Below are positions 10,147-64,000 of a stretch of DNA of 64,000 nt, piece after piece. The DNA is from Acutalibacteraceae bacterium (GTDB taxonomy: Bacteria > Bacillota > Clostridia > Oscillospirales > Acutalibacteraceae): assembly GCA_045660965.1 (NCBI GenBank), contig JAZRES010000004.1, positions 6,396 to 70,395 of the forward strand, in the 5' to 3' direction. The notes beneath the pieces are model-generated. The model searched no databases and was not told the origin of the DNA. It saw nothing but the letters and a program-made list of their open reading frames with translations. A program made the translations under genes and the position numbers. The stretch's first letter is position 1. Each line of letters opens with the position of its first letter.

Positions 10147-10175
10147 TTGACGAAACGATAGGTGTATGGTATATT
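10147..10175 (+). promoter_or_regulatory. Candidate sigma-A promoter for the first GH-A/CBM cassette
   Basis: TTGACG-17 nt-TATATT with an extended -10 TG, ~45 bp upstream of the ATG at 10219. Confidence 0.5.
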
Positions 10176-10218
10176 TTACTTAAGTATATATTTACGTATT
10201 AGAGAGGAAGTGCATAGA

Positions 10219-12126
10219 ATGAGCAAACGGGTACGTAGCTTGTTGTCGCTGTTGTGCGTGGTTTCTATGGTGTTTTCTTTGGCCGGTTGCGGTATGCAGG
10301 CATCCGGCGGTATGGATCCCACCATCGAGCCCAACAGCGTGGCTAACATCCTAGAGCGAGACGGCTATCTGGACGGTATCTGGTGGCCTTGGTTTACCCA
10401 TGACGATTTAGGACACGGCCTTACCGCTAACGAGACCATGGTCAAATACGTGGGTAACACCTGGTCTACGGTGGGCATTGATAGCTATAGTGATGGATAC
10501 TTGCTTAAGCAGATTTATAATCTGAAGGCTTTGGGATTCAACATTATGGGCTATGAGGGCTCTATCTACGCCGAGGGCGTCATCTTTGATGACAACGGCG
10601 ACGTAGTGGGCATCAAGGAGGATTATCTCCAAAATGTCCGCCGTTTGCTGAATCTGTGCCGTCAGGTCGGTATGCCGGTGTTGTGGACGGTGTGTTGCCA
10701 CTCCACTTCGGCGGTGAATTATTACAATCTGGAGGTCTGGTATCGAATGACCCAGATGTATGCCGTCAAAGAGGTGGCTGACCACTATGCCGAGCGGTTT
10801 GTAAAACCTCTGTGCGATGTGCTGGCAGAGTATCCCGACGTGGTGGTGATGTGCGCCGCTGCCTCTGAGGTAGAGAATGAGATGAACGACCCGGATATGG
10901 GCAACTTCACCGATAGCCGTGAGACCTACGGTGTTACCCGGGATAGTATGCTGTACTTTGTGAACAAGGTGGTGGATACCCTGGCAGAGAAATTGCCGGA
11001 CGTGGATCGTACGCTCTGCGGTAGTACCGACAATATGACCATGTATTCCGAGACCGGCCTGACCTATGTCGGTCACCAGGAGTACAATTCTGCCGGTAAT
11101 GCCGACGACATTTCCAAATTCCGTTCTCCGCTTCCTATGATTGCAACCGAGTTTGGCCTTGGTGACGAGCAGTATCCCGATGAGCAGACCTTGGCGGATA
11201 AGCAGATTTTGTTCCGTGAGAATTTCCGTAGCAAGGGTTGGACCGGTTGGCTGATGTGGTGTTGGTCGCCCAAGTCCAGCGGTAGTTCTTACGATTTGAT
11301 AAAAAAGGATGGTGCACTCACCGACTTCCGTTTGTTTGCCTATGAGCTTCACGATTATCTAGAGGACTATCGGGCTGATCATCGGGGTGAAACTGTCTAC
11401 GTTAATACGCCCAGTATGTTCTACAATGCCGGTGATGGCGTGGTGGAGTGGATCAAACCCACCCAGCCCCACACCTATAAGCTGGAGCGGGCTATCAATG
11501 GTGGTGCTTGGACCACCGTGACCACCTCCGGTGCCGCAGTGGATGCCTTAGGCCGCAAGTATACCTACAAGGATACCATTCTGCCGGCTTCCGGTACGGT
11601 GCAGTATCGTGTCACCGTTACCTCTGATGGCGATACGGCTTCCTCCACCTCTAATGTGGCGGACATTATACCTCCTGCGGTTAATTTGGTGACCAACAAT
11701 AGTTTTGAGGATGGCTTGAATGGCTGGGCTCTCTATGGCAATAATGGCGCCTATCGTGCCACCTCTGCTACTGCTCGCACCGGGTCCTACAGTTTGGAAC
11801 TGGATTACGGCAGTGTCGAATGGCAGGGTGCTTATCAGTCCTACATCACGGTCAAGCCCAATACCAACTATACCTTGAGTTATTATTACAAGCACGCTGC
11901 GGACGACACCGCCAACAACTGCTATTGCTTTATCCGTGGCGGTAACGGTACCATCGACGATGCCGTCATCACCTCAGCTTATATGAATGGCGGAAATTAT
12001 AACGAGTGGAAGAAGGAAACCATCACCTTCCGCACCGGTGACAGCACGAAATTGTGTGTCGATTTCCGTGTAGTGGCCGGTACTCATACCTATATCGACG
12101 ACGTCGAGTTGTACGAAGCACAGTAA
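10219..12126 (+). CDS. Secreted lipoprotein: clan GH-A (GH5-like) glycoside hydrolase + Fn3-like domain + C-terminal CBM4_9-like module (cassette 1 enzyme)
   Basis: Lipobox SLAGC. (beta/alpha)8 clan-A hallmarks: acid/base SEVENEMND (N-E) and nucleophile IATEFGLGD. C-terminal NLVTNNSFEDGLNGW...YIDDVELYE module. Paralogous to 34681 and 41698. Confidence 0.8.
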   Translation: MSKRVRSLLSLLCVVSMVFSLAGCGMQASGGMDPTIEPNSVANILERDGYLDGIWWPWFTHDDLGHGLTANETMVKYVGNTWSTVGIDSYSDGYLLKQIYNLKALGFNIMGYEGSIYAEGVIFDDNGDVVGIKEDYLQNVRRLLNLCRQVGMPVLWTVCCHSTSAVNYYNLEVWYRMTQMYAVKEVADHYAERFVKPLCDVLAEYPDVVVMCAAASEVENEMNDPDMGNFTDSRETYGVTRDSMLYFVNKVVDTLAEKLPDVDRTLCGSTDNMTMYSETGLTYVGHQEYNSAGNADDISKFRSPLPMIATEFGLGDEQYPDEQTLADKQILFRENFRSKGWTGWLMWCWSPKSSGSSYDLIKKDGALTDFRLFAYELHDYLEDYRADHRGETVYVNTPSMFYNAGDGVVEWIKPTQPHTYKLERAINGGAWTTVTTSGAAVDALGRKYTYKDTILPASGTVQYRVTVTSDGDTASSTSNVADIIPPAVNLVTNNSFEDGLNGWALYGNNGAYRATSATARTGSYSLELDYGSVEWQGAYQSYITVKPNTNYTLSYYYKHAADDTANNCYCFIRGGNGTIDDAVITSAYMNGGNYNEWKKETITFRTGDSTKLCVDFRVVAGTHTYIDDVELYEAQ

Positions 12127-12139: not shown

Positions 12140-14695
12140 ATGAAAATCAAATACGTTTTAGCGACCATTGTATCTCTCTGCTTGGTGTGCGTTTTTTTGA
12201 TGACGATGCCCGCATCGGTGCTGGCGGCGGATAACCTAGCCGTTAACGGCGACCTGGAGATGGGCAACGACAATGGCTGGAAACTCAATAATGCCACTAT
12301 TGCCCCTGCAGAGTACTGGGACGTCCACAGTGGCAATTACGCCTTGTGCTTGAATCCGGCTTCGGATTATTTTGAGAGTGCATTGAAAACGGTTCCCGTA
12401 GGCAAGAATGCCACGGTAACGGTATCTTTATACTATACGTATTGGGGTTATGGTGAGTTCCACGTGTACACGTATAAGGGTGCGGATACGTCTGTAGGCG
12501 CCTATACCGACGGAGCGGATGCTTCTCTGGCGTATAGCTTCCGGTGGAAAAAGATTTCTTATACGTTCAATAGTGGCGATTATGACTACATTACGTTAAA
12601 ATTCTGTCCGGTAGGTGCCGACGATCGCTGTACCATTGACGATTTGGTGGTTACCGCCGTGGGCGGTGCTCCAGTAGAGGAAGACCCCTATCTTACCTCT
12701 TTCGGCACCAAATACAACCGTCCCAAGAATGATGCTTCCAATTTGCTCGTGAACGGTGGCTTTGAGTCTGCCGGTGGCGCTCAGTGGAACACCAATTCGT
12801 TTATTAAAGGCAATCTGTCCGTGGTGGCGGATTCTACCGCTCCCGAGGGTTCAAAATCGCTGTATTTTGACAGCGGTAATGTGACAACCCCCGTATGGCA
12901 CACGTTCCCTGTGACGGTGGAGCGCAATACAATATACACTTTCTCCGCTTGGGTGAAATCTCCTCGCTTGAGCGCTATCAACGATGCTACCGCTACGTTC
13001 GGTGTGATGAATGCCGAAACCGGCAAATTCTTGGTTTACGAACCCTATAATGGAAACGGTTATGGTTCCGCTTCCTTGTCTACCGAGACGATGCAGTTGA
13101 TGGCCACCTCTCCGGATGGAGAGTGGCATCTGCGTTCGGTGACCTTTAATTCCGGCTCCCACACCACGTTGTATATTGGTGTCTATGGCGCCGAGAGCCA
13201 GCTGTATTTGGACGACGTAGCCCTCTATAAGAGCGCCTATGGTATGGAATACATTAGCGATCTGCGTGCCGGTAGCATCACCGCCAGAGAGAATACCGGC
13301 AACAAGTATTGCGCAGATGAAGATTCTCTGGTTCCCAACCCGCAGATGAGCGGTCAGGCAGCTAAGAACCATTGGTCCTCCAACCCCGCTTGGCGAAACG
13401 GTTTTCTGTCTTTCAAAGAGTCTGCTGACGAACACGGCACGGTGCTGAAATACAGCAGCGAATCCGGCTTGGGACTGACCTACGTGGACTGGATTGACGT
13501 AGAGCCCAATACCTCGTATACGTTCACAGTTGACGTGTGTTCTTTCGGTTATACCGACAATAGCCGCATTGCTCTGTTGGATGATAACCCCTTGTCACCT
13601 GCCGAGTTTTACAGCATCTATTTTGAGTATGCCGATGATGAGTGGTTGACCTATTCCATCACTTTTAATACCGGCGTGTATTCCCGCATCGGTTTGGCCA
13701 TTATGGATTTTGGCGGCGAGGCGATGATCGACAACGTACGCCTGTTTGAAACGTCCAGAGGTATCGCCGATGAGCCGGAAGATGTTGGTACTCCTACGCT
13801 GAAGCCTACCGGTGGCAAGACCAGCGTTATGGAGATGGTAGCCGGTCCTACCAACGTGGTTGGCAATGGTGGCTTTGAGGATGGCTTTAACAGCTTTGAT
13901 GTGTACCAGTTTACCACGCTATCTGCCGATGCGGCCCATAGTGGTGCCAATGGCGCTCACCTAAAAGGTGACGGTGGCTGGGGCGCTATGGTGGAAAAGA
14001 CCAACATCCCCGTTAAAGACGGCAAAACCTACACCGTTTCCTATTGGTACAAGGCCAATGCCAGTGGCGCCAACATCTCCGTTATAGGTACGGATAGTGG
14101 CGTCCAATACGCTTATGTATGGGCGAGCAGAGGTCAGTGGACAAACGTGACGGCTACCTTTACGGTAGATGGCGATACCAGTGTAAGATTCAATGCTTGC
14201 GGTAGCGGTACCGGTGTGGCGGAGGACGTATATCTGGATGATATTTCCATTATGGAAAATACCGAGGGATTGCTGGGCATTGCCTTCTTGATGGAGTTAC
14301 AGGCGTATAACGTAACTCGCAACGAGCAGGGTGTTGCAAACCTGAATAACGCCACTGTGGACGTCTTTGGCAATGATGGGAGATACCGCCTGGTGCAGAT
14401 GGGCGCCGTTATGACCAATAAGGCCTGGATTGGAACCAATAAGCGTCAGTTTACACGGGAATACGCCGTGGATGGCAACGTAGTGCTTGTAGATATCCCG
14501 GCAAAGTATCTGAACAGTACCGACCGATTCTCTACCAACTTTGCGGTGCGTGTTATTAACGTACCCACTGGTAGCGCTGACGTGGTGATTTACGCCCGTC
14601 CCTATTACGTGTTTGAAAAGGATGGAGAGTTGTTCACAGTATACGGCGATATCTACAGCCGTAGTTACAACGACCCCGCTATTTCTATGGATTGA
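12140..14695 (+). CDS. Secreted CBM4_9-like module array (4 modules) ending in the 'YARPYY' module (cassette 1 partner)
   Basis: Signal peptide, then modules starting DNLAVNGDLEMGNDNGW, NLLVNGGFESAGGAQW, SLVPNPQMSG..., NVVGNGGFEDGFNSF. The C-terminus is ...MGAVMTNK...FAVRVINVP...IYARPYYVFEKDGELFTVYGDIY. Starts 14 nt after the hydrolase gene, with an AGGAGG RBS. Confidence 0.8.
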   Translation: MKIKYVLATIVSLCLVCVFLMTMPASVLAADNLAVNGDLEMGNDNGWKLNNATIAPAEYWDVHSGNYALCLNPASDYFESALKTVPVGKNATVTVSLYYTYWGYGEFHVYTYKGADTSVGAYTDGADASLAYSFRWKKISYTFNSGDYDYITLKFCPVGADDRCTIDDLVVTAVGGAPVEEDPYLTSFGTKYNRPKNDASNLLVNGGFESAGGAQWNTNSFIKGNLSVVADSTAPEGSKSLYFDSGNVTTPVWHTFPVTVERNTIYTFSAWVKSPRLSAINDATATFGVMNAETGKFLVYEPYNGNGYGSASLSTETMQLMATSPDGEWHLRSVTFNSGSHTTLYIGVYGAESQLYLDDVALYKSAYGMEYISDLRAGSITARENTGNKYCADEDSLVPNPQMSGQAAKNHWSSNPAWRNGFLSFKESADEHGTVLKYSSESGLGLTYVDWIDVEPNTSYTFTVDVCSFGYTDNSRIALLDDNPLSPAEFYSIYFEYADDEWLTYSITFNTGVYSRIGLAIMDFGGEAMIDNVRLFETSRGIADEPEDVGTPTLKPTGGKTSVMEMVAGPTNVVGNGGFEDGFNSFDVYQFTTLSADAAHSGANGAHLKGDGGWGAMVEKTNIPVKDGKTYTVSYWYKANASGANISVIGTDSGVQYAYVWASRGQWTNVTATFTVDGDTSVRFNACGSGTGVAEDVYLDDISIMENTEGLLGIAFLMELQAYNVTRNEQGVANLNNATVDVFGNDGRYRLVQMGAVMTNKAWIGTNKRQFTREYAVDGNVVLVDIPAKYLNSTDRFSTNFAVRVINVPTGSADVVIYARPYYVFEKDGELFTVYGDIYSRSYNDPAISMD

Positions 14696-14698
14696 TGG

Positions 14699-14779: not shown

Positions 14780-14826
14780 ATACAATATGTGTGACAAAAC
14801 ATCACTAAGTGAAAATGAGGGATAGT

Positions 14827-16203
14827 ATGAAACGAATAATCGGCCTGTTGATGGCGTGTACTTTATTACTGGCGATGGTTGGTTGTTCCGGTGGCAAGTC
14901 CAACCGGGAGGAGCCTTACGCTCCGCTGGAACCGCTGACCTATACCGGTTTACCCACAGAGCTTAAGGCAGAACCGCTGGGATCGCTTAGCGGCGAGATT
15001 AGCCTGACCAGCAACGGTATTATCTACCGTGAGGGCGAAAAATACGGTATCATCACCCCGGATGGCAAGGTGGATTCCGGTGCGATTTACGCCCAATATG
15101 AGCTTAAGAACGATTATTTCCTGGTGTCCAAGAGTAAGCCCTCTGCCATTAACGGCATCGAGGGTATGAACGTGACCGGTGTGGTGGATGCTGCCGGTAA
15201 CGTACGGATTCCCTTGGAGTATGCACAGATTATGATGATGGACGACCGCTTTGCTCGTGTGGTAGAGATTACTGCCACTGTAGAGAGCGAAAAAGAGGGC
15301 GTTATTGCGTATGTGGACGATAATGGCGAAAAGGTGCATTGCGCCGGCACTTGGTATATCTACGATATGCAGACCGGCGAAAAGGTGCCCGGTGCCACCG
15401 GTACCACCCGCTACGCTACCTATACCTATGGCAGTTACGTCAAATACGTCACCGATGACAAAAAGGTGGTCGTTTCTACCCCCGGTGGTAAAGAAATCCC
15501 GGAAAAAGCCGTGCATTTGCTGAACGGTTATTACGTTATTGAAGAAGAAAATGCCGTGTATAACGGCGATGGCGAGCAGATATTCACTTACGATCCCGCC
15601 GGCTATATCCCCTGCGAGAGTAAGGATTATGATCAGTATATCTTAGCCAAGAAGCAAGTGGATGGCAAAGATTCCTTTGTTTTGATGGATCTCACCGGCA
15701 AGGTGGTGACCACCGCCTTTGCCGTGCAGCCTCGTGTGTATGGCGAGTTGTTGTTGGTGGGCAGCAATTTGGTGGCTTTTAATGGCACTGTTGTGGCAGA
15801 AAACAACATTGTGGTGTACTGGGAGTCACTGTACGGGCAGTGCTGGGTATCTCAGACCAAAGATGCACGCAAGGCCATTTCCAAGGATGGCACTGTCCTC
15901 TATGAGGGCGGTGAAGAGGACCCCGCTCTGGATGTTCACGATATGCTGTTGAGCAAGAAGGTAGACGGTAAAGAGGTCTTCTATTCTGTTAAAGATAAGG
16001 ACTACACGCTGACCGGTGTGGCTATGGCTCCTTTCATCGTAAAAGTGTCTAATGGCGAGTCCTATTACGACCTGGTCAACGTGCTGACCGGCGAGGTAAT
16101 TCTGGGCGGTTACACGGATTATAGAGTGAAAATTATCGGTGGCGTTTTGTATGTATATGCAATTGAGCCTGAGAATAATTTTCAAGTCTATGCCATTCGC
16201 TGA
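14827..16203 (+). CDS. Lipoprotein with WG-type beta-strand repeats
   Basis: Lipobox AMVGCSGG. Repeated G.I..dGK-type units (GEKYGIITPDGKV, VVDAAGNVRIPLEY, ...) resemble WG/KWG repeat proteins. Confidence 0.6.
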   Translation: MKRIIGLLMACTLLLAMVGCSGGKSNREEPYAPLEPLTYTGLPTELKAEPLGSLSGEISLTSNGIIYREGEKYGIITPDGKVDSGAIYAQYELKNDYFLVSKSKPSAINGIEGMNVTGVVDAAGNVRIPLEYAQIMMMDDRFARVVEITATVESEKEGVIAYVDDNGEKVHCAGTWYIYDMQTGEKVPGATGTTRYATYTYGSYVKYVTDDKKVVVSTPGGKEIPEKAVHLLNGYYVIEEENAVYNGDGEQIFTYDPAGYIPCESKDYDQYILAKKQVDGKDSFVLMDLTGKVVTTAFAVQPRVYGELLLVGSNLVAFNGTVVAENNIVVYWESLYGQCWVSQTKDARKAISKDGTVLYEGGEEDPALDVHDMLLSKKVDGKEVFYSVKDKDYTLTGVAMAPFIVKVSNGESYYDLVNVLTGEVILGGYTDYRVKIIGGVLYVYAIEPENNFQVYAIR

Positions 16204-16258: not shown

Positions 16259-16362
16259 ATACGGTGGTTTTGCCACATACCGACCTTAAACAACCGCATA
16301 GAGCAAGACTCTTGTATGGTTAGACGTTGTATGATATGCTTACTTACGAAAGGAGGCGTGCT

Positions 16363-16794
16363 ATGAAAGTGACAACCATTCTGGATCCCGATCGAGAAGA
16401 GGAAGTGATTATCTTTACACGGGAGAGAAATCAGCTGGTGGAGGAGATTGAACGGCTAGTGTCTCGAAACACCGCAGAATTAGTGGGGTTTTATAACGAT
16501 TCTGCTACAATTCTCGACTATGTAAAGATTGTCCGCTTTACAGTGGAGAATGGCAAAATCTACGCCGTAGTAGGGAATAAACGCTATCAGATTCGCCGAC
16601 GGCTGTACCAATTGGAGCAACAGATGCCGGCCAGTTTTATCAAAATCAACCAATCTTGTTTGGCGAACGTTCGTCACATTGTTCGCTTCGAGGCTGCCTT
16701 TTCCGGAACCTTACGGGTGGTGTTTAAAAACGGGGATATCGACTACGTTTCTCGTCGCAATCTCAAACAAATCAAAGAAAGGTTCGGTTTATAA
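16363..16794 (+). CDS. Stand-alone LytTR-family DNA-binding protein (no receiver domain)
   Basis: The C-terminal FIKINQSCLANVRHIVRFE...LRVVFKNGDIDYVSRRNLKQIKE is the LytTR domain pattern. Start at MKVTT after an AGGAGG RBS. Confidence 0.8.
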   Translation: MKVTTILDPDREEEVIIFTRERNQLVEEIERLVSRNTAELVGFYNDSATILDYVKIVRFTVENGKIYAVVGNKRYQIRRRLYQLEQQMPASFIKINQSCLANVRHIVRFEAAFSGTLRVVFKNGDIDYVSRRNLKQIKERFGL

Positions 16795-17257: not shown

Positions 17258-17953
17258 TCAGCGGGTCAGACCCTCACGATAGAGGTGGGCATCGCTGGCG
17301 TGCTGCAGAATTTGGGGAATTACCACACCGTCGCCGTGGTGGTAGAACAGGATTTCAGTAGTGCCGGTCAAACCAATGTTAAAGCGGGGATAGAACACGT
17401 TATAGGGGATGTCCATCACACTGCTGAGGAAGGCCAGACCGAAGCCGTAGTGGGCAAACAGCGCCACACGATTGGGGTTTTTATCAATGATGTGATAGCA
17501 GGCATTTTCTCGGTCGTGGCGCAGACCCAATTGCTCCATAAAGGCGTCAACAGCGGCGTCTACACGCTTAACACCACGCTCAAAGTTGGTGTCGGCAAAA
17601 TAGGGGTGGGTGTACCACTCACGACCCAACTTGCGCACCTCGGGAGAGTTGAGTTTTTTCACCATATCCGGCACTTCCAGAATCCACTGATCCTTGCCCT
17701 CGCTGTCCTTGGCCTTGAAATCGTCAAAGGCGTACATTTCGTGTGCCCAATCGCAGATGATGGGCTCTTTCTGTAGCAGATCACAGGTGGGCTGGGCGGT
17801 CTGGATGGCACGGGTGGAAGAAGAGGCGTACACCGCATCCAAGCCGTTAAGCAAAAAGCGTTTAGACAGGGCTTTTGCCTGTTCGTGACCCAGGGGGGTC
17901 AGGCTGTCCGGATCGTAGATGGGCTGACCGTGGCGGACAAAAAATAATCTCAC
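17258..17953 (-). CDS. Histidine phosphatase superfamily protein (phosphoglycerate-mutase-like), paralog A
   Basis: N-terminal catalytic RHG motif (FFVRHGQPIY), LTPLGHEQA, and a second His in LFAHYG. ~40% identical by eye to 33626-34354. Confidence 0.85.
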   Translation of the reverse strand: MRLFFVRHGQPIYDPDSLTPLGHEQAKALSKRFLLNGLDAVYASSSTRAIQTAQPTCDLLQKEPIICDWAHEMYAFDDFKAKDSEGKDQWILEVPDMVKKLNSPEVRKLGREWYTHPYFADTNFERGVKRVDAAVDAFMEQLGLRHDRENACYHIIDKNPNRVALFAHYGFGLAFLSSVMDIPYNVFYPRFNIGLTGTTEILFYHHGDGVVIPQILQHASDAHLYREGLTR

Positions 17954-18254: not shown

Positions 18255-21166
<2,912 letters not shown>

Positions 21167-21248
21167 GACTCCCACTAATTTCTTTATTATTCTATTAGTA
21201 TATGACCTGCTGCGACAGCAAAATTTCTAAGAAAGAGAGATGTAGACC

Positions 21249-25090: not shown

Positions 25091-25105
25091 GGAGGGGAGA
25101 GCGTA

Positions 25106-25999: not shown

Positions 26000-26040
26000 A
26001 ATATGAGTAGTATGATACGAATTGAAAGGGGGATTGCAGG

Positions 26041-28248: not shown

Positions 28249-28269
28249 TCGGCAAAGAAAGGAGAGCGA

Positions 28270-30528: not shown

Positions 30529-30549
30529 TGAAAGGAGGATGATTACACC

Positions 30550-31440: not shown

Positions 31441-31455
31441 GAGAGGTGATGAAGA

Positions 31456-32442: not shown

Positions 32443-32483
32443 TTGTATTGGTTTTTAAAATAAACATATAAGGAGTAATTATT

Positions 32484-33470: not shown

Positions 33471-33478
33471 TTTGCATT

Positions 33479-33510
33479 AAAAATGCCCCTGCTTCGGCAG
33501 GGGCATTTTT
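33479..33510 (+). terminator. Rho-independent terminator ending the GH2-ABC-GH130 operon
   Basis: aaaaatgcccctgc-ttcg-gcaggggcattttt. Confidence 0.88.
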
Positions 33511-38647: not shown

Positions 38648-38684
38648 AAGGCGTTTGGGTATTTTTGTAAAAAGAGGTTTCGTT

Positions 38685-49619: not shown

Positions 49620-49740
49620 AGTTACCTCCATAGGGTGACAAAAGCAAAACTCTATCTGAAGATATATCCCATTATATACATTTTTCTACGAAAATCAAGA
49701 GTTTTTGTTATCAAAATGCTAGTTTTTACCGAAAAATGAT

Positions 49741-54090: not shown

Positions 54091-54137
54091 AGTGTTTTCC
54101 TCCTTTTATTAAAATTTTATGCAATTTGCCACCTTTG

Positions 54138-54166
54138 AGTATAGCAAAAAGACACCCAAAAAGCAA
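54138..54166 (-). promoter_or_regulatory. Candidate sigma-A promoter of P1
   Basis: The minus strand reads TTGCTT-17 nt-TATACT, ~45 bp upstream of the P1 ATG and downstream of the P2 terminator. Confidence 0.45.
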
Positions 54167-54219
54167 GTAGCTATATAGTAATGGATAGTATTTTAATACC
54201 TATATATAGAAAAATACCG

Positions 54220-54260
54220 AAAAAAGCCCCCTGCAACAGAATTGCCTGTTGCAGGGGGCT
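54220..54260 (-). terminator. Rho-independent terminator of giant paralog P2
   Basis: The minus strand reads gccccctgcaacag-gcaatt-ctgttgcagggggc followed by TTTTTT. Confidence 0.85.
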
Positions 54261-54291
54261 TAGGGTTAGCTATAAAGTGAAATCACTTTAC

Positions 54292-57200: not shown

Positions 57201-59265
57201 CGCTGAAGTTCAGCTTGATGGCGGAGTCACCGTTGGAGGTGACGGTGGTGGTGTACTGGGTCCAAGTGCCGGTGGGGGACTTGATGGACTTGTTCTGATA
57301 CATGGTGCCGGACTGTACGCCCTGCAGCTGCAGGGTGAAGCCGTTGGCGTTAATCTTGTACCAGAAAGACAGCTCATAGGTCTTGCCGTTCTTGACGGCC
57401 ATATTCTGGTTCAGCATACCGCCCCAAGAGCCGTTACCCTTCAGGTTAACGCCGTAGTTGCCTTCATAGGCAGCGTTGGCGGAGATGGTGGTGGACTGCC
57501 ACTTCTCCCAGCTGGACAGGTCGCCGGCCTCAAAGTCGCCGTTGCTGATCAGAGGAGCTTCGGTGACGGAGACGTCATCGATATAGGCAACCTCATACTC
57601 GCCGTTACCGGCGCCGCAGATGTTGATGAACAGAGCGTTGGTGGTGGGGGATACCACGAAACTAATCTGAGTCCAGTCAGCATAGCTGGAAGCGGAACAC
57701 CACTTGCCGGCAAGAGAGGCGCCGGAATCGTTGGTCTCTTTGACCTGGATGTTGACGCCTACGCTCTTGACCTTCAGCCACATCGTAACCACGTAAGACT
57801 TGCCGATAACGGCGTCAACGGTGGTGTACAGCAGAGAGCCATAGGAGCCCTTGCCGGACAGGTAAGCACCATAGTTACCGGTCTTGGCAGCCTCGGTGTT
57901 TACGGTAGTAGACTGGTTGGCGTGCCAGCCGGTGGTATCACCGGTCTCGAAGGTGCCGTTAATGACCAGGTTGCCGGACACAACGGGAGCATCGGGATTG
58001 GCGGGGGTGTCGGGGTTCTCCGGCTCTTCCAGGCCGGGCTCAACAGTACCGTCGGCACGTACCAGATACACATCATCGAAGTAGTACTGACCGGCGTTGG
58101 CACGGTAGTTGGAGAAGGTAATGGTGGTGTTGGAAATATCACCGGAGTTGAAGGGAATCTCCACAGAGCACCATTTGTTACGAGCGCTGGAACTGGTAGC
58201 AGTGAAGCGCACGCGGGTGCTGGAGGAGCTGGACACCGTCTTTACTTCCAGACCGCCGGTGGTGACGTTGGAGGTGCTGTAGGTAACAGCGTTGGTACCC
58301 AGAGTCACCCAGAAACCGGGAGAGGAAGAGGCGGTGGAGTAGACGTAAGTCTTAAACTTCAGAATGTAATCGGTGTTGGGGGACATACTGGCAACGGACT
58401 GATAGAACATCTCGTTGCCGGAACCACCGTCAGAGGTGTTGTTGGCGTCGGTCTTCATCACCAGACCTTGGTTAGAAGAGGTGGGATCGCTCACAACAGA
58501 GGTGGCGATGGTGCTGGAGTTGATCAGGGTCCAGTTGGCACCGCCCTGCTCAAAGTCACCATTCTTCAGCATGTTGTAGCCTTCGGGAGCCAGTTCAGAG
58601 GGCTCGTCGGGAGTCTCAGGCTCGTCGGGCTCAACGGGGGTCTCAGGCTCGTCGCCGCCAACCTTGGTCAGCACCACGTCATCAAAGTAGTAGTAACCCT
58701 GCAGAGTGCGGTAGTTACAGAAGATGATGCGGGAGTTGGTAGCAGAACCGGAGTTGAAGGGGATGGATACGTCCACCCACTTGCCGGTATTGCTGTTGAC
58801 GTTCAGACGAACACGGATGGCAGAGCTACTGTCGATGTTCTGACAACCGAAACCGGTTACGTCGGCGGTGTTGTAGCTCACCTTGTTGCCGGTGTCTTTA
58901 TCATAGAAAGAGATGATAAAGGCGGCGTTGCTGGCGGTGGAGTAGCAGTAGGCCTTAAAGGTCAGCACGTAATCGGTGTTGGCCTCCAAGCCGGGCTGCT
59001 GATAGAACATATCGTCACGGCCGTTAGAGTTGTTATAGGTGGACACGGTGTGCATCACCTTACCCTGACCGGCGCCGGTGGGATCGTCTATCACTTCGGT
59101 GGCGGTGTCATCGTCGTTGATCAAAGTCCAACTGGTAGCACCGTTCTCAAAGTCTCCGTTTGCAATCAGATTATCTGCGGCGAAAACCATCGCAGACAGG
59201 GGCAGTATGCTGCACAGCATCAATACCGACAACAGTACTGCCAAAGCTTTGCGGAATTGCTTCAT
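54292..59265 (-). CDS. Giant secreted protein P2: 6 CBM-like modules (two of a distinct N-terminal class) + YARPYY module + degenerate SGNH-like region + metallophosphoesterase domain
   Basis: Signal peptide MKQFRKALAVLLSVLMLCSILPLSAMVFA. Module starts: NLIANGDFENGATSW, NMLKNGDFEQGGANW, NLVINGTFETGDTTGW, PLISNGDFEAGDLSSW, GYIINGDFEYRDW, GYIYNGDFETGVFGKW. PE-rich linkers. Then PALAFGF...IYARPYYVYEVDGEEFTIYG, then TIGETDG. MPE motifs: GSDFQ, GGDYT, GNHD, SHLPL, SHNHSG. Confidence 0.85.
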   Translation of the reverse strand: MKQFRKALAVLLSVLMLCSILPLSAMVFAADNLIANGDFENGATSWTLINDDDTATEVIDDPTGAGQGKVMHTVSTYNNSNGRDDMFYQQPGLEANTDYVLTFKAYCYSTASNAAFIISFYDKDTGNKVSYNTADVTGFGCQNIDSSSAIRVRLNVNSNTGKWVDVSIPFNSGSATNSRIIFCNYRTLQGYYYFDDVVLTKVGGDEPETPVEPDEPETPDEPSELAPEGYNMLKNGDFEQGGANWTLINSSTIATSVVSDPTSSNQGLVMKTDANNTSDGGSGNEMFYQSVASMSPNTDYILKFKTYVYSTASSSPGFWVTLGTNAVTYSTSNVTTGGLEVKTVSSSSSTRVRFTATSSSARNKWCSVEIPFNSGDISNTTITFSNYRANAGQYYFDDVYLVRADGTVEPGLEEPENPDTPANPDAPVVSGNLVINGTFETGDTTGWHANQSTTVNTEAAKTGNYGAYLSGKGSYGSLLYTTVDAVIGKSYVVTMWLKVKSVGVNIQVKETNDSGASLAGKWCSASSYADWTQISFVVSPTTNALFINICGAGNGEYEVAYIDDVSVTEAPLISNGDFEAGDLSSWEKWQSTTISANAAYEGNYGVNLKGNGSWGGMLNQNMAVKNGKTYELSFWYKINANGFTLQLQGVQSGTMYQNKSIKSPTGTWTQYTTTVTSNGDSAIKLNFSGIGGSGSANASLAEDVYIDSITLVEQKSASSDGYIINGDFEYRDWSTHWINTNNACTVSLVEGHNSSQALSIKAGTWNQVRQKITVEPNTDYELTLWAKDTTDITLILKTGVTDQNYAQRSISAGSTWTQITYTFNSGDNSSLYLGFMGQESGNGAATIDDLRLVALKDPSFDGYIYNGDFETGVFGKWQKNNSSLSSISNEAHTGIYSASVKGVGDWGGHLLYQTITLEAGKTYTLSFWYLPVSNGVNYKLRTTDESVSFDSLYMDSNKVAQWTYHEVTFEAGTATEIEMTFSGSGKQNGTNDEVLIDDVRLVNLSGSEMDRVEITTPKGASIRDENDLPALAFGFDMLATNIQIENGNQYVAGTGNLKLYKYAEVIGNLKRFGAVVTNLAAVGTDADAFKLDSVNGSNVIDVNAKYLLSLDDDALSFAVRILNIPDANLGNEIYARPYYVYEVDGEEFTIYGTIANNNYLAVEATRRTKRVLTIGETDGFETYLYDVLKDADYDQVILGSYNDGAYKKNDDNGKWVSGSIAQADLMADERWQYIVVTNDADLAWANANKPADAQVLYYGDDVAVDTALANLDTVLDASDEQDEYTAALTWFLSLSGGESLELVDYNANFSDSDNYNMYRAAARAYANPNKVYDLTETVLLSGSDFQPNTWEKGIETLQGLTNSVKANSGYSSFDGLLFGGDYTQALGSDFDSSNEGLHVLENEISKSVNFDRHYAQGNHDAAGIDLLDPYGNNDPKGAPYGVFLVHEDNYNAYGGSGQQVAADLTAYFNEKLANGWGNKPIFVVSHLPLHYNYRTMKDGGAKSAAYIIDALNSASEAGLNIFFLISHNHSGGYDDYLGGAAIYIPKGESILVPDVANYKNAPIETELKFTYMNCGYVAYYNDMGEGADTSLTMCTFRIQENGDVIVTRYDKNGEHNLKSAGALSPYDRDYTEYTEADGRVYESSRIVGAYKDEEYED

Positions 59266-59402
59266 GGTCTTTTCCTCCTTTTAATATATGGCGAGCAGAA
59301 TCCCCCTCTGCTCATAAAATAGGCCAATATCATTATATACTATATTTATAACGACAAAAAGATACAAAATAGAGAAAAAGCGGTACAAAACGAAAGTTTT
59401 TC

Positions 59403-59472: not shown

Positions 59473-60327
59473 ATGTACGTGTATCGTGGTGATTTGGGCA
59501 ATTACGTGGATGCCATTGTGGACACCACCACACCGCTGTTGATTACCTCAGCCGGCAATATTCGCCCTCGTAGTGCAGCGAAATTCTATACCACCCGTCC
59601 GGAAGGGCGAGAGGATTATCAGCTCCTTTACGTGGCGGATGGATTCATCCATTTCGAGTTTCACAGTGAGGAGCGGGTGGTGGAAAAAGGCCATCTGGTT
59701 ATGTATTGGCCGGGTGAGAGCCAGTACTATAAAATGTATGCCGCCGACCAGGCAGAATTCTATTGGGTGCACTTCACCGGCTACGACGTAGAGCGCTTGT
59801 TGGCAGAGTGGGGGATACCCCGTGGGCAGAACGTGTTTTGGGTGGGTACCGACTCGGATTATCGGTGGCTGTTCCACCAGATGATTCGGGAATTGCAGTT
59901 ACGCCACAGCAAATACGAAGAGGTCACCCGTATGAATTTGCGCCACCTTTTCCTGCTGATAGAGCGCCATTTGACCGAGTCGGAAGAGGATATCAGCGCC
60001 GATTTCCACGGCGAAATTATCCAGGCCATCACTTGGTTTGACCGCCATTGGCGTGAGCCCATCTCCATCGAGGATTACGCTACCAGAAACCGTATGACCC
60101 CCTGCTGGTTCCGGCAAAAATTTAAGCACCAGACCGGCGTCAGTCCTATGCAATACGTTACCAATCTGCGCATCACCAACGCCATGAATCTCATAGAGAA
60201 TACCGACTATAACATCTCCCAGATTGCTGAGGCGGTAGGGTATGAAAACCCCACCTATTTCCGCCGTTTGTTCCATAAGCACACCGGTATGTCCCCTTCG
60301 GAATATAAGAAGCAAAAACGCAAATAA
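59473..60327 (+). CDS. AraC-family transcriptional regulator (cupin sensor + HTH), AraC-2
   Basis: N-terminal AraC-binding/cupin pattern (REDYQLLYVADGFIHFEF...GHLVMYWPGE). C-terminal HTH ISQIAEAVGYENPTYFRRLFHKHTGMSPSEYKK. Confidence 0.88.
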   Translation: MYVYRGDLGNYVDAIVDTTTPLLITSAGNIRPRSAAKFYTTRPEGREDYQLLYVADGFIHFEFHSEERVVEKGHLVMYWPGESQYYKMYAADQAEFYWVHFTGYDVERLLAEWGIPRGQNVFWVGTDSDYRWLFHQMIRELQLRHSKYEEVTRMNLRHLFLLIERHLTESEEDISADFHGEIIQAITWFDRHWREPISIEDYATRNRMTPCWFRQKFKHQTGVSPMQYVTNLRITNAMNLIENTDYNISQIAEAVGYENPTYFRRLFHKHTGMSPSEYKKQKRK

Positions 60328-60401: not shown

Positions 60402-63400
60402 TTAGCCGGTGTACTCCTCATCGGTAGTAGCGGTAACAATGCGCTGGGGACCGTAAACGGTCTCGTTTACGGGGATGTAGTCGATATACTCGTTGGGGTT
60501 GTGAGCCTGACCCTTAGCCTTCAGGTTGTGGTAGCCATCCTTGTCGTAACGAGTGATGATGACAGAACCATCCGCCTGAATCTTAAAGGTGGTCATGGTC
60601 AGAGTCCAGTCGGGACCCTGCTCTACGTGATAGCCAACGTAACCGGAGTTCATATAGGTGAACTTCAGCTCGACTTCCTGATACTCCTTGTAGTTCTCAG
60701 GCTTAGCGATCAGCATGGTGTCGCCCTTAGCCAGGTAGATAGAACCACCGCCCAGGTAAGAGTCATAGTCACCGGAGTGGTTATGACCGAACAGGAAGAT
60801 AACGTTAAAGCCGTTCTCGCCACCGTAGTTCAGAGCCTCTACAATACCCTGAGCGTTCTTACCAGCGCCGTAGTCGCTGATGGTACGCCAGTTGAAGTGT
60901 AGCGGCACGTGAGTCAGCACGAAGATGGGCTTGTTACGATTCCAGTTGTTCTCGATTTTCTCGTTGAAGTAAGCCATCAGGTCGGCAGCGGGATCGTTGG
61001 CACTGGTGCCACCGAACTGACCGTAGTCTTCCTCATGGATAACGAAGGCGCCATAGGTGCCGCCCACGGGATCGTTGTTGCCATAGGGGCTCAACTTCTC
61101 AACGGTGGGAGCGTCGTGGTTACCCTCAGAGAAGACCTTGTTACCGATGATGAAGCCGTTGGTGAAGTTATCCAGCTCGGCAATACCCTCGGTAGCGTTG
61201 TCGTGACCGTGGTTGGGAGTGTAGTCACCGGTGAACAGCAGACCATCGAACAGCTCATAGCCGTCGGTATTCTTGATACCGCCCAGGATGCTGTTGATGT
61301 TGTTGAAGTTCTTCTCCCAGGTGCTGGCCTGGAAGTCGGTACCGGCCAACAGGATGGTATCACCCATGTTGGAGATCTCATAGGGGTTGATGATGGCACG
61401 GCCAACAGCACGCTTGATGTTGAATACATCGTTGGTGACAGAGGCGGGAGCATAATCAACCAGATCCAGGCTCTCACCGGTGATGGCAGCGTACCAGGTC
61501 AGAGAGGCGGTATAATCGCCGTGCTGATCGTTCAGGTGGTAGCCGTCAGCGGTCAGAGTGTCGCCCAGAGCGGTCTGACGCAGGTTCTGGATAGCAGTAC
61601 CGGCGGGGATGACACCGTCGATGCCCTCTACGTTCAGAACAGTGCCCTGAACAGCGTTCACGATGGCATTGTACATAGTCATCTGATCGCTACCGTAGTT
61701 GGGGAATGCCTCGTGGGTGCTATCCTGCTGATAGGCCCAAGTCATATGCCACATAACCTTGGCATCGGGGTTGGTCTTGTACTGGTTGACCCAGTCAACG
61801 ATATTCTGCAGGTTGCCGAAGGTCTCGGGCTGGCCGGAGTTGGAGGAAACCTGCTGCACGGTGATGACATCCCAGTTCTCATCCTGCAGAGCGGTCAGAG
61901 CCTGAGTGCCGTAGGTGGTCTCCCACTTACCGTTGTCCTCGTTCTTGTGATACTCATAAGAACCGGACTTGTTGCTGATGTAGCCCCAGTGCTGGTCCAG
62001 AGAGCAACCGCCGACGTACAGGTTACCCAGGATGACCTGGTCGTAGTCAGCGCTCTTCAGAACGTCGTACAGATAGTTGCGCATAGCGTCAACAGAGAAG
62101 GAGTTGCCGATGGCCAGAACCTTCAGAGAGCGGCGTACGCTGGCAACAGCGTCGTAGCTCTCGTTGGCGGTCTCACCGTAAATGGTAACTTCCTCGCCGT
62201 TGATCTCGTAGGTGTAGTAGGGACGAGTGTAGATCTCGTCAGCGGTATGACCGTCGGGGATGTTGACGATACGGATGGCATAGAACATGTCACCGTTATC
62301 CTCGTAGTCGGTCATATACTTGGCAGCAACCTTGATAACGTTAGTGCCGTTGACGTCAGCCAGGGTCATATCGCCGGAGCCGATAGCAGCCTGGTTGGTA
62401 ACGACAGCGCCGGACTCGATCAGAGTACCGATAGCGTCGTCGTAGTTGAACAGCTTCATGGTACCGGTACCGGAGATGTACTGGTTGCCGTTCTCGAACT
62501 GAGCGCCGATAACATTGGTGGCAAAGCGGAAGGCCAGACCACGGTTGTCGTCGCTGACGTCACGGATGGAGGTGCCGGAGTTCTTCAGAATCTCGCAACG
62601 GTCCATCTCGTCGCCGGACAGGCACTCGATCTTGATGTCGTCGATCCACAGCTCGTCGACAGCGCTGGGATTGCTCTCAGCCTTACCGGAGCCGGAGAAG
62701 TTCAGGATCAGCTTGGTAACGTAGCCGGACTCGAAGGTGGCCTCGTACAGAGTCCAATCCTGCTTACCGCTCAGATAGTTACCGGCCAGCTTGGTGTTCT
62801 GGTTGTCCTGATCCTTCAGGGTCATGTTCAGACCGTTCTTGGGGGTCTTGTACCAGAAGGACAGCTTGTAGGTCTTACCAACCTCAACAGCGATGTCTCT
62901 CTGGGTCAGCAGGCCGCCCCAGTTAGCGGTACCCTTCAGGATAGCGCCGTACTTGCCGTTCTTGGCGGCGGTGGCGGACAGAGCGGTCTCTTTGTTGGTC
63001 TCCCAACGGGTCATGGAGCCGGCCTCGAAGTCGCCGTTCCAGATATAGCCGTCGAAGGAGGGATCCTTAACCTCAACAACCTTGAAGTCGTCGAAGTAAA
63101 CCTTATCGGTTACGTTGTTACCGCTACCGCAGATGTTGATCTTGGCAGTGGTGCCGGTGGCGGTAAACTCCAGGGTGTGAGTAGCCCAAGAGGTGCCGCT
63201 TACATACTTGCTGGCTAGGGTGGCGCCATCCTGCTTGATCTGTACGTTTACACCGCTGGAAACAGCCTTGTAGCTGAAGGAAACGGCATAACGATGGCCA
63301 GCCTCGGTAGCGAAGTCCTGATAGGCCAGACCGGGATAGCCGGAGCCGTTACCGGTAGCTACCAGACCATACTTGCCGGCGTTAGCAGCCTCTTTGGCTA

Positions 63401-64000
63401 CAGTAGTCTGCAGGTAAGAGGTCCAGCCGGAGAGCTCGCCGGTCTCGAAGTCGCCGTTCTTGATGAAGCCATCGTCAGAAGCGATCTTCTCGCCAACCAG
63501 CTTGATGTCGTCGATCAGGACGTCCTCAGCCACGCCGTTACCGCCGCCGCAGAAGTTGAAGCAGATGGTGTTGGTGGTGGGGGTCACGTCCCAGGACAGC
63601 TGAGTCCACTCGGTAGCGGTGAACCACTTGCTGGCCAGGTTGGCGCCGGAGGTGCCGCCGTCCTTAATCTGGACGTTGACGCCGTTCTGGTTGGTCTTCA
63701 GCCACAGGCTGACGGTATAGGTCTGGCCGGCCACAACAGTGACGTTCTGGTCCAGCATACCGCCCCAACCGCCGGTACCCTTTACGTTAACAGCATAGGA
63801 ACCGCTGTGAGCGTTGGTGGAGATGACGGTGGACTGGTGCTTGTTCCAGCCGTTCAGGTTGCCCAGCTCGAAGTCGCCGTTGTTCACCAGGTTATCATCT
63901 TCCTCAACCTCGGGCAGGATGATCTTAGCAATGTACAGGTCGTCAACCCAAACGTCCTGGGCAACGCCGGTATCCTGGAACTTAAAGCGCATCTTGCCTT
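60402..64000 (-). CDS. Giant secreted protein P3 (5' end beyond the window): >=4 CBM4_9-like modules + YARPYY-type module + intact-looking DUF4886/SGNH domain + metallophosphoesterase domain
   Basis: Module starts: NLVNNGDFELGNLNGW, GFIKNGDFETGELSGW, GYIWNGDFEAGSMTRW. Then RGLAFRF...IYTRPYYTYEINGEEVTIYG. SGNH blocks AIGNSFS and ADGYHLND. MPE motifs: GTDFQ, TGDYT, GNHD, THVPL, GHNHSG. The reading frame is still open at 64000. Confidence 0.85.
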   Translation of the reverse strand, partial: GKMRFKFQDTGVAQDVWVDDLYIAKIILPEVEEDDNLVNNGDFELGNLNGWNKHQSTVISTNAHSGSYAVNVKGTGGWGGMLDQNVTVVAGQTYTVSLWLKTNQNGVNVQIKDGGTSGANLASKWFTATEWTQLSWDVTPTTNTICFNFCGGGNGVAEDVLIDDIKLVGEKIASDDGFIKNGDFETGELSGWTSYLQTTVAKEAANAGKYGLVATGNGSGYPGLAYQDFATEAGHRYAVSFSYKAVSSGVNVQIKQDGATLASKYVSGTSWATHTLEFTATGTTAKINICGSGNNVTDKVYFDDFKVVEVKDPSFDGYIWNGDFEAGSMTRWETNKETALSATAAKNGKYGAILKGTANWGGLLTQRDIAVEVGKTYKLSFWYKTPKNGLNMTLKDQDNQNTKLAGNYLSGKQDWTLYEATFESGYVTKLILNFSGSGKAESNPSAVDELWIDDIKIECLSGDEMDRCEILKNSGTSIRDVSDDNRGLAFRFATNVIGAQFENGNQYISGTGTMKLFNYDDAIGTLIESGAVVTNQAAIGSGDMTLADVNGTNVIKVAAKYMTDYEDNGDMFYAIRIVNIPDGHTADEIYTRPYYTYEINGEEVTIYGETANESYDAVASVRRSLKVLAIGNSFSVDAMRNYLYDVLKSADYDQVILGNLYVGGCSLDQHWGYISNKSGSYEYHKNEDNGKWETTYGTQALTALQDENWDVITVQQVSSNSGQPETFGNLQNIVDWVNQYKTNPDAKVMWHMTWAYQQDSTHEAFPNYGSDQMTMYNAIVNAVQGTVLNVEGIDGVIPAGTAIQNLRQTALGDTLTADGYHLNDQHGDYTASLTWYAAITGESLDLVDYAPASVTNDVFNIKRAVGRAIINPYEISNMGDTILLAGTDFQASTWEKNFNNINSILGGIKNTDGYELFDGLLFTGDYTPNHGHDNATEGIAELDNFTNGFIIGNKVFSEGNHDAPTVEKLSPYGNNDPVGGTYGAFVIHEEDYGQFGGTSANDPAADLMAYFNEKIENNWNRNKPIFVLTHVPLHFNWRTISDYGAGKNAQGIVEALNYGGENGFNVIFLFGHNHSGDYDSYLGGGSIYLAKGDTMLIAKPENYKEYQEVELKFTYMNSGYVGYHVEQGPDWTLTMTTFKIQADGSVIITRYDKDGYHNLKAKGQAHNPNEYIDYIPVNETVYGPQRIVTATTDEEYTG

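Follow-up and report, generated by a model that had tools for sequence, protein, structure and literature searches.

Organisation of the locus

We analysed a 64,000-nucleotide stretch of the genome of an Acutalibacteraceae bacterium (assembly GCA_045660965.1, contig JAZRES010000004.1, positions 6,396 to 70,395; hereafter the window), in which a cluster of carbohydrate-related genes starts at about 10.1 kb and continues up to the end of the window. Open reading frame (ORF) listing, Pfam and NCBIfam scans and all-vs-all BLASTP were applied to the window proteins. These reproduced the gene inventory that a first-pass annotation of the sequence had given for the ~54-kb locus. It comprises three cassettes, each pairing an enzyme with an array of carbohydrate-binding modules (CBMs), three giant proteins encoded on the minus strand, glycoside hydrolases (GHs) of families GH2 and GH130, two solute-binding proteins (SBPs), four permeases, two AraC regulators, two His_Phos_1 proteins and one Lgt-like protein. 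A DUF5696 lipoprotein, a membrane protein with NHL, TPR and Yip1 regions, a LytTR regulator and the lipoprotein at 14809-16203 are additions to that inventory. The same annotation had described the locus as extracellular, built from paralogs and dominated by CBMs, which our results support. Regulators (two AraC and one LytTR), import through SBPs and ATP-binding cassette (ABC) permeases, and extracellular and intracellular carbohydrate-active enzymes are all co-localised here, and the overall design is of a known kind, the Gram-positive polysaccharide utilisation locus. Our favoured reading, held with moderate confidence, is that this is a conserved chromosomal locus of uncultured gut Acutalibacteraceae aimed at a β-1,4-mannan-type glycan. 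Its three cassettes consist of the following genes:

10162-12126, plus strand: cassette 1 enzyme; GH5-like (β/α)8 domain, immunoglobulin (Ig)-like domain and one C-terminal CBM_4_9 module
12140-14695, plus strand: cassette 1 partner; secreted, four CBM_4_9-type modules and a C-terminal module X (~14252-14692)
34636-36324, plus strand: cassette 2 enzyme; GH5-like domain and Ig-like domain, no CBM, N-terminal hydrophobic anchor or signal
36345-38573, plus strand: cassette 2 partner; secreted, three CBM_4_9-type modules and a C-terminal module X (~38112-38570)
41698-43767, plus strand: cassette 3 enzyme; N-terminal hydrophobic helix, GH5-like barrel, Ig-like domain and CBM
43783-48585, plus strand: cassette 3 partner; nine CBM_4_9-type modules, proline/threonine-rich linker, C-terminal transmembrane segment and KKRKK tail (~48457-48585)

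Enzyme and array genes are separated by 13-20 bp in all three cassettes (13 bp in cassette 1). Terminator-like hairpins lie 3' of the GH130 gene, of the second His_Phos_1 gene, of the Lgt-like gene and of the tail-anchored array gene 43783-48585. The cassette 2 unit (enzyme, array, Lgt-like protein) and the cassette 3 unit (SBP, enzyme, array) each close with such a hairpin. We propose that each enzyme gene is probably co-transcribed with its CBM-array gene.

A divergent family of GH5-like enzymes

The three enzyme paralogs share 34-43% identity in the all-vs-all comparison, the highest value being that between 10162-12126 and 41698-43767 (43%). The cassette 1 enzyme is a lipoprotein with the lipobox LAGC and a likely true start at 10219. 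The N-terminal ~450 residues of the paralogs had no sequence match in Pfam, NCBIfam or the PDB, the last searched with phmmer and with a full-length profile. The Pfam Cellulase model (PF00150) matched none of the window paralogs at E ≤ 0.01, nor 34636-36324 even at E ≤ 10. Only unnamed proteins of uncultured Clostridia are found among their homologs.

An AlphaFold2 (AF2) model of the cassette 3 enzyme, computed with 46 homologs (predicted local distance difference test, pLDDT, 88.6; predicted TM-score 0.86), contains a (β/α)8 barrel at residues ~47-405, followed by an Ig-like domain (412-500) and a CBM (514-689). Foldseek matched this model to 606 PDB entries at E ≤ 1e-3, and GH5, GH30, GH1 and other clan GH-A families were prominent among the top matches. 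The best compact matches were the GH5_10 β-mannanases 2c0h, 4ooz, 3vup and 5y6t together with a GH5 exo-mannosidase; these matched with a TM-score of ~0.6 normalised on the target, an E-value of 1e-11 and 11-14% identity. The assignment of the enzymes to clan GH-A in the first-pass annotation is correct, as judged from the predicted fold and the Foldseek search.

Apart from this fold search, only a profile search of 1.84 billion cluster representatives linked the catalytic domain to GH5. The profile of the three catalytic domains retrieved 232 proteins at E ≤ 1e-3. When 60 distant family members were scanned, seven scored with Pfam Cellulase/GH5 (best 1.1e-17). For one of these seven, the distant relative P0270, the match to the Mytilus mannanase 2c0h has an E-value of 1e-17; hhalign aligns it to the paralog profile with a probability of 98.2% (E = 4e-14), and the NE and E residues coincide in this alignment. 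All 46 homologs have N233-E234 and E324, and none of the three window paralogs has lost them. The paralogs thus appear to form a small and very divergent offshoot of GH5, with β-mannanases as the nearest relatives by both predicted fold and sequence. We do not file them outright as GH5, because they fail the Pfam GH5 model.

The GH5_10 mannanases of Mytilus edulis (Man5A, 2c0h), Aplysia (3vup), Cryptopygus (4ooz) and Eisenia (5y6t) share the (β/α)8 clan GH-A fold and the aligned NE and E residues with the window proteins. The latter differ in that they add an Ig-like domain and a CBM, are negative for Pfam Cellulase and belong to a family confined to uncultured Clostridia, with 232 representatives.

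Carbohydrate-binding modules and array proteins

Pfam CBM_4_9 directly detected 23 modules, and seven proteins scored 31-232 bits against a cut-off of 25.9, with E-values down to 3e-69 per protein. A hidden Markov model (HMM) iterated on the locus itself found 32 full modules in eight proteins and one more that is truncated at the window edge, close to the "roughly thirty" counted by hand in the first-pass annotation. When profiles of these modules were searched against the PDB, the top match was a module of an uncharacterised type IX secretion system protein (8xmz), on which a literature search returned nothing relevant. The best functionally characterised match was the mannan- and cellulose-binding CBM16 of ManA (2zex/2zey, 7e-11); further matches were to CBM22, a GH26-associated module, CBM4 and CBM61. 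The modules with the N-G-x-F-E motif had been taken for CBM4_9-like modules. By profile similarity they are genuine members of the CBM_4_9 superfamily, apparently closest to CBM16.

Caldanaerobius polysaccharolyticus ManA (2zew/2zex/2zey/2zez) has the same CBM_4_9-superfamily β-sandwich, and for the window modules the ligand is a prediction. ManA carries two CBM16 modules on its catalytic domain, whereas up to nine modules occur here in non-catalytic proteins.

Within the nine-module array 43783-48585, a 462-bp tandem duplication comprising one CBM and its linker (44339-45239) is present in 2.0 copies with 90% nucleotide identity, and the duplicated modules are 92% identical to each other. The duplication appears to be recent and would be evidence for ongoing module amplification.

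Uptake and cytoplasmic core

Between cassettes 1 and 2 lies a run of genes from 18302 to 33470, in the order GH2, SBP, two permeases, Yip1/NHL protein, DUF5696 lipoprotein, two permeases and GH130, with gaps of at most 82 bp. These genes are listed below with the histidine phosphatases, the Lgt-like gene and the second SBP:

17258-17953, minus strand: His_Phos_1 paralog 1, cytoplasmic (Pfam, BLASTP)
18302-21166, plus strand: LacZ-type GH2, cytoplasmic; Glyco_hydro_2_N/_C, LacZ_4 and Bgal_small_N (Pfam)
21249-24164, plus strand: SBP, secreted, 971 residues; SBP_bac_1 at residues 575-863 (Pfam, NCBIfam)
24161-25090 and 25106-25999, plus strand: ABC permease pair 1 (Pfam)
26041-28248, plus strand: membrane protein with an extracellular NHL/TPR region and a C-terminal multi-transmembrane Yip1 domain (Pfam)
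28270-30528, plus strand: DUF5696 lipoprotein, lipobox LTGC (Pfam, E = 2.9e-126)
30550-31440 and 31456-32442, plus strand: ABC permease pair 2 (Pfam)
32484-33470, plus strand: GH130_2-type β-1,4-mannoside phosphorylase, cytoplasmic (Pfam Glyco_hydro_130, 1e-81)
33626-34354, plus strand: His_Phos_1 paralog 2, cytoplasmic; terminator-like hairpin at 34363-34391
38655-39545, plus strand: Lgt-like membrane protein, with partial, sub-threshold similarity to prolipoprotein diacylglyceryl transferase; terminator-like hairpin at 39557-39586
40054-41607, plus strand: SBP lipoprotein, lipobox MVGC (PDB match to the SBP Lmo0181, 5e-7)

The GH130 protein scored 521 bits (1.4e-155) against TM1225, 431 bits (3e-128) against RaMP2 and 407 bits (7e-121) against UhgbMP. 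Scores against β-1,2-mannoside enzymes were at most 150 bits, and those against GH130_1 were ~103 bits. By sequence score, the protein belongs to GH130_2, not to GH130_1 or the β-1,2 enzymes. It is 91-97% identical across syntenic loci, and a strong terminator-like hairpin follows its gene at 33478-33511. The two His_Phos_1 proteins are 44% identical to each other.

The SBP at 21249-24164 has an N-terminal extension of ~570 residues and a cleavable-looking signal peptide, but no lipobox. In the second SBP (40054-41607), a (TEA/TEATTEAS)n linker that stems from a 12/36-bp tandem repeat (40184-40272) follows directly after the lipobox. The DUF5696 protein had no match in the PDB, either as a single sequence or as a three-sequence profile, and a literature search found no paper on this family. 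Lying between the two permease pairs, the Yip1/NHL and DUF5696 pair looks like an uncharacterised transporter-associated module. The Lgt-like gene is kept at the same position in eight related loci at 39-65% identity, and its product could be a dedicated lipid-modification enzyme or another transferase for the surface proteins of the locus.

Giant proteins with CBMs, SGNH and phosphodiesterase domains

Three giant proteins occupy the last part of the window:

49813-54090, minus strand: giant 1; five CBMs, module X (~51301-51738), degenerate DUF4886/SGNH domain, metallophosphodiesterase
54292-59265, minus strand: giant 2; six CBMs, module X (~55771-56208), degenerate remnant of the SGNH region, metallophosphodiesterase
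60402-63992, minus strand: giant 3; at least three CBMs, module X (~62133-62585), intact DUF4886 SGNH domain (~61410-62123), metallophosphodiesterase (~60405-61355)

Giant 3 runs off the window end, which makes its module count a lower bound. Long ORFs overlap on both strands here because of the GC content of ~52%. The plus-strand ORFs 49933-54138, 54181-59322 and 60909-63218 were considered as the coding strand and rejected, as they had no Pfam matches; the giants are placed on the minus strand because all domains fall in minus-strand ORFs.

The giants are 38-41% identical over ~1200 residues (BLASTP). A model of the C-terminal 760 residues of giant 3 (pLDDT 85.9) comprises module X, a DUF4886 SGNH domain and a calcineurin-like phosphoesterase. 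The DUF4886 domain (Pfam 1e-82) superposes on BACUNI_01406 (4i8i), the only solved DUF4886 SGNH-fold protein, with a TM-score of 0.91, 1.8 Å root-mean-square deviation and 38% identity, and the two have the Ser and His residues in common. In the alignment of paralogs and homologs, giants 1 and 2 have lost the SGNH Ser (GNSFS) and His (DGYH), which only giant 3 retains. The three giants had all been described as CBM-SGNH-phosphoesterase proteins, which holds for giant 3, where the SGNH domain is intact, but not for its two paralogs. In contrast to BACUNI_01406, DUF4886 is fused here to CBM arrays and a phosphodiesterase and is degenerate in two of three paralogs. No activity is known for the DUF4886 family (PMC9487903).

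The phosphoesterase motifs SDFQ/TDFQ, GDY, GNHD, H-PLH and GHNH align in the three giants and in full-length homologs, with two substitutions: PLN for PLH in giant 1 and SHNH for GHNH in giant 2. In giant 3, Pfam Metallophos scored 26.3 bits (1.2e-5) against a cut-off of 21.5. The domain had no sequence match in the PDB. Its nearest folds were Lmo2642 (2xmo) and SMPDL3A (5ebe), with Foldseek E-values of 7e-7 and 2e-5 and 9-14% identity, and both have the D / GD / GNHD / H / GHNH metal motifs in common with the C-terminal domain of the giants. The conserved functional part of the three proteins is a predicted phosphodiesterase, because its motifs persist while the SGNH Ser and His survive in one protein. 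To our knowledge, a fusion of CBM arrays to a calcineurin-like metallophosphodiesterase has not been described before.

The C-termini of the giants share an acidic tail (RVVTATDDRKYED, RIVGAYKDEEYED and RIVTATTDEEYTG at 49816-49860, 54295-54340 and 60405-60450, respectively), a motif that is also visible in the homolog consensus.

Surface retention and module X

Dockerin, Cohesin, SLH, Gram_pos_anchor and CW_binding domains were absent from all window proteins at E ≤ 0.01 in Pfam, and a motif scan of these proteins found no LPxT[GAS] or NPxTG motif. The reported lack of dockerin, cohesin, SLH and LPXTG is thus confirmed at the motif and domain level. The broader statement that there is no recognisable anchoring stands for classical domains but not beyond them, since lipoboxes, N-terminal anchors and a tail anchor can be identified. 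Lipoboxes occur in four proteins (10162, 14809, 28270 and 40054), N-terminal hydrophobic helices in two enzymes (34636-36324 and 41698-43767), and a C-terminal hydrophobic stretch with a KKRKK tail but no sortase motif in 43783-48585. Surface retention would run through these lipoboxes, N-terminal anchors and the one tail anchor.

Our census covered 60 related loci (986 kb), and in it a tail anchor composed of a proline/threonine-rich linker, a transmembrane segment and (R/K)KKK ends 37 GH5-like or CBM-array proteins. SPATG, SPDTG, SPVTG or PNTGDS stands directly before the transmembrane segment and basic tail in loci L007, L008, L009 and L017; the proteins concerned are orthologs of 43783-48585 in L007-L009 and a related tail-anchored protein in L017. 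These SPxTG and PNTG motifs resemble the (S/P)PxTG signals of clostridial sortases. Other relatives contain choline-binding repeats (Choline_bind in P0091, P0095 and a 1450-residue protein of L001) or an SLH domain (P0388), and dockerins occur in some distant relatives elsewhere.

Module X is a β-sandwich of ~150 residues with the motifs GLAFRF…GAVVTN…VRVINIP…YARPYYVFE…TVYGD. Within the window it is found only in five secreted proteins that have neither a lipobox nor a transmembrane anchor. It is terminal in the cassette 1 and 2 partners and internal in the giants. Across the census, module X and a C-terminal transmembrane segment never occur together: 21 CBM proteins and 7 GH-CBM proteins have module X, versus 13 CBM proteins and 24 GH-CBM proteins with the C-terminal segment. 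Against Pfam, module X returned only noise at E ≤ 10, and a homolog search returned 11 short unannotated fragments. Foldseek indicated a weak resemblance to CBM21 and CBM56 (TM-score ~0.45-0.48). The mutual exclusivity of module X and the transmembrane anchor hints at another way of retention or at a role in partner binding.

Many binding modules and few catalytic domains at the cell surface are a trait that the locus has in common with cellulosomes, amylosomes and the surface glycan-binding proteins (SGBPs) of Bacteroidota polysaccharide utilisation loci (PULs). By analogy, the separate non-catalytic CBM proteins may work like Bacteroidota SGBPs. Unlike in cellulosomes and Bacteroidota PULs, there is no cohesin-dockerin pair, SusC/D or outer membrane here, and the tethers are lipid, transmembrane or other.

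Conservation of the locus and related loci

The GH5-like family was found only in metagenome-assembled genomes (MAGs) labelled Acutalibacteraceae, Oscillospiraceae, Ruminococcus or Clostridia. Several of these come from goat caecum or sheep rectum, and single genomes hold six to eight loci with GH5-like genes. Collinearity with SVON01000003.1 and with further contigs of Acutalibacteraceae and Oscillospiraceae MAGs extends over the entire window and takes in the housekeeping genes that precede 10 kb; the linkage and order of cassettes and GH130 core are the same from species to species. Chance or an assembly artefact was rejected as an explanation, given that separate studies produced independent MAGs with the same gene order. 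Identity to the SVON01000003.1 orthologs is 85-97% for cytoplasmic enzymes, compared with 44-76% for extracellular enzymes, CBM arrays and lipoproteins. The scale and cassette-amplified build of the locus had been called unusual for a Gram-positive sugar-utilisation locus; the scale does not reflect a one-off event, as the same locus is collinear in several MAG species. Because of this collinearity, the locus is best described from its sequence as ancestral and clade-typical, with fast-evolving surface components, and not as a unique amplification. We found no characterised utilisation locus with which it is collinear. A literature search on Acutalibacteraceae and mannan returned nothing relevant.

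Two related arrangements were seen in other MAGs. A sister locus (L001/L012; JAZOWI010000023.1, 14.4-36.4 kb) contains three tandem SBP-like lipoproteins, a GH5-like enzyme, the 1450-residue CBM array with choline-binding repeats, stand-alone Lipase_GDSL_like and DUF4886 proteins, and a giant with CBMs, Exo_endo_phos and CE2. One gene of JAZOWI010000023.1 matches the window (~72% nucleotide identity), and housekeeping proteins are ~78% identical. Locus L033 (JAFXFF010000020.1) and the overlapping L046 contain five tandem genes for tail-anchored GH5-like proteins of ~1000 residues with two CBMs each, which is a different way to expand the GH5-like family.

Substrate and proposed mechanism

We infer a β-mannan-type substrate from the GH130_2 enzyme, the GH5_10-like folds with their sequence bridge, and the CBM16-like modules. 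These pointers qualify the first-pass view that the target glycan is not obvious, although the substrate is inferred. In the order of events that we propose, three membrane-tethered GH5-related retaining enzymes would cut the polymer at the cell surface, with the Glu of the NE pair as acid/base and the second Glu as nucleophile. Separate non-catalytic proteins of three to nine CBM16-like modules would act as surface glycan-binding partners, and the resulting oligosaccharides would be imported via two SBP-dependent ABC systems. In the cytoplasm, the GH130_2 phosphorylase would yield mannose-1-phosphate, with the LacZ-type GH2 and the two histidine phosphatases alongside. The giants would bring an Lmo2642/SMPDL3A-like metallophosphodiesterase to material recognised by their CBMs and presumably remove ester or phosphodiester decorations; one of them would also bring an active DUF4886 SGNH esterase.

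Several points weigh against this reading. The structural identity of the paralogs to mannanases is just 11-14%, GH5 is polyspecific, and the enzyme activities are predictions from sequence and model. CBM16 binds β-1,4 chains of both gluco- and manno-configuration, and Man-β1,4-GlcNAc from N-glycans is a further substrate of GH130_2 enzymes such as UhgbMP. We know of no established role in plant β-mannan use for a LacZ-type GH2, histidine phosphatases or CBM-targeted phosphodiesterases, and plant β-mannan breakdown would not explain the phosphodiesterase of the giants. DUF5696, the Yip1/NHL protein, module X and the lipoprotein 14809-16203 appear functionally blank. The window also lacks GH26, GH113, a GH36 α-galactosidase, GH3, GH130_1, an epimerase, phosphomannomutase and mannose-6-phosphate isomerase; all of these except GH3 are reported to accompany GH130_2 in characterised Firmicute mannan loci (PMC6385246).

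The recurrence of a phosphoesterase slot in the sister locus, together with the two histidine phosphatases, is the reason to weigh a different target: a decorated glycan bearing phosphodiesters and acyl groups, with β-mannosides and β-galactosides, in place of plain plant β-mannan. We consider this unlikely, as we do the candidates that it brings to mind: a phosphoglycan or wall polymer from microbes, fungi or protozoa, or the head groups of plant glycosyl-inositol-phosphoryl-ceramides. Extracellular CBM-targeted phosphodiesterases would then cleave the diesters and cytoplasmic histidine phosphatases strip phosphomonoesters from the imports, a scheme that we regard as equally doubtful. It would fit the phosphoesterase motifs that are largely kept in all three giants while the SGNH site has decayed in two, and their nearest folds, which are the phosphodiesterases Lmo2642 and the acid-sphingomyelinase-like SMPDL3A. 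In the L001 giant, Exo_endo_phos-CE2 puts an unrelated phosphoesterase fold in the same architectural slot of a CBM array. Two conserved cytoplasmic His_Phos_1 genes adjoin GH2 and GH130, and the locus has a LacZ-type GH2 instead of an α-galactosidase. However, a candidate polymer was identified by none of the analyses, the closest relatives of the GH130 protein sit in plant-mannan pathways, and both phosphoesterase folds are common in nucleases and nucleotidases, so that phosphate or nucleotide scavenging is possible.

The polyspecificity of GH5 also leaves room for the cassettes to target another β-glycan (β-glucan, xyloglucan, galactan or host N-glycan), with the GH130/ABC core as a separate scavenging module for manno-oligosaccharides or Man-GlcNAc embedded between them. 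GH5_4 endoglucanases, GH30, GH1 and GH140 lie within two to three orders of magnitude in Foldseek E-value, relatives within the CBM_4_9 superfamily include modules that bind xylan, β-1,3-glucan and galactan, UhgbMP-like GH130_2 enzymes act on N-glycan cores, and terminator-like hairpins part the GH2-to-GH130 run from the cassettes. Yet fold ranking and sequence bridge both lead to the same GH5_10 mannanases, the order of cassettes and GH130 core is kept across species, and GH18, GH85, GH20, GH33 and other N-glycan enzymes were not found in the Pfam scans of the window; we judge this division of the locus, like its other-glycan target, improbable. Quite improbable, too, is a role of the arrays and giants mainly as adhesins or as the scaffold of a cellulosome-like complex with a new docking pair, for example through module X. 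The exact coincidence of module X, within the window, with the five proteins that have no lipobox or transmembrane anchor, its exclusion from proteins with C-terminal transmembrane anchors throughout the 60 loci and the dockerins of some distant relatives would suit such a complex. A partner for module X was not found, nor was a cohesin or scaffoldin in the window Pfam scans; moreover, module X is internal in the giants, and its weak resemblance to CBM21 and CBM56 favours another sugar-binding module.

Returning to the β-mannan-type reading, the closest described counterparts are the β-mannan loci of Roseburia intestinalis, in which a CBM-bearing endo-mannanase at the surface, an SBP/ABC importer and SGNH esterases are combined with GH130_2 (PMC6385246). 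Our locus shares with the MULL/MULS loci of this species and with their Faecalibacterium prausnitzii analogue a Gram-positive host, a surface endo-enzyme with CBMs, ABC import, an SGNH esterase, GH130_2 and a regulator. The loci are not collinear and differ in most particulars. The surface enzyme is GH26 in Roseburia and three remote GH5 paralogs here; binding resides mostly in separate multi-CBM proteins here, with 32 modules versus the two of Roseburia; and the esterase is extracellular and of DUF4886 type. GH113, GH36, GH3, GH130_1 and the epimerase are missing from the window, which has in addition the phosphodiesterase giants, DUF5696, the Yip1/NHL protein, the LacZ-type GH2 and the histidine phosphatases.

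Within a known kind of design, what appears under-described are the GH5 offshoot missed by standard annotation, the multi-CBM partners, module X, and the giants with CBM-targeted DUF4886 and metallophosphodiesterase domains. It seems unlikely, though conceivable, that these together make up an undescribed Gram-positive apparatus in which unclassified GH5-related enzymes would work with dedicated, separately encoded multi-CBM partners kept at the surface by module X, as a new retention module, or by tail anchors, and in which CBM-guided phosphodiesterases, whose fold family is known for nucleotide and sphingomyelin-type diesters, would remove phosphodiester-linked decorations from a phospho-glycan with β-mannosides. 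If the phospho-glycan reading were true, the locus would represent new enzymology for glycan foraging in the herbivore gut and not ordinary hemicellulose use; phosphodiesterases acting on glycan decorations would themselves add a new class of activity to polysaccharide utilisation. Otherwise, the locus would still supply divergent mannanase-like enzymes and CBM arrays of high avidity. A small enzyme family invisible to annotation (~230 among 1.84 billion clusters), present in six to eight loci per ruminant-hindgut Acutalibacteraceae genome, suggests an overlooked fibre-degrading guild. Outsourcing binding to separate proteins of three to nine CBMs, putatively co-transcribed with the enzymes, is a principle rare in Firmicutes. 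The locus also places DUF4886 and a CBM-targeted metallophosphodiesterase in a functional context for the first time; the motifs of the latter are retained while the esterase decays.

Regulators and flanking genes

The remaining genes of the locus encode three regulators and a lipoprotein:

14809-16203, plus strand: lipoprotein without family, lipobox MVGC (motif scan)
16327-16794, plus strand: LytTR DNA-binding protein (Pfam, E = 1.4e-19)
48702-49631, minus strand: AraC-family regulator (Pfam)
59473-60327, plus strand: AraC-family regulator (Pfam)

The lipoprotein had no match in Pfam (also at E ≤ 10), NCBIfam or the PDB, and its orthologs in four syntenic loci are 40-45% identical. An Rfam scan of the window found no riboswitch and two tRNAs upstream of the locus; the tRNA genes lie at 6941-7014 and 7082-7154. 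Further upstream, an adjacent pair of paralogous genes at 2796-5457 (39% identical over ~380 residues) is followed by one further gene and then the tRNAs. This housekeeping flank with the gene pair and the tRNAs is syntenic with related MAGs.

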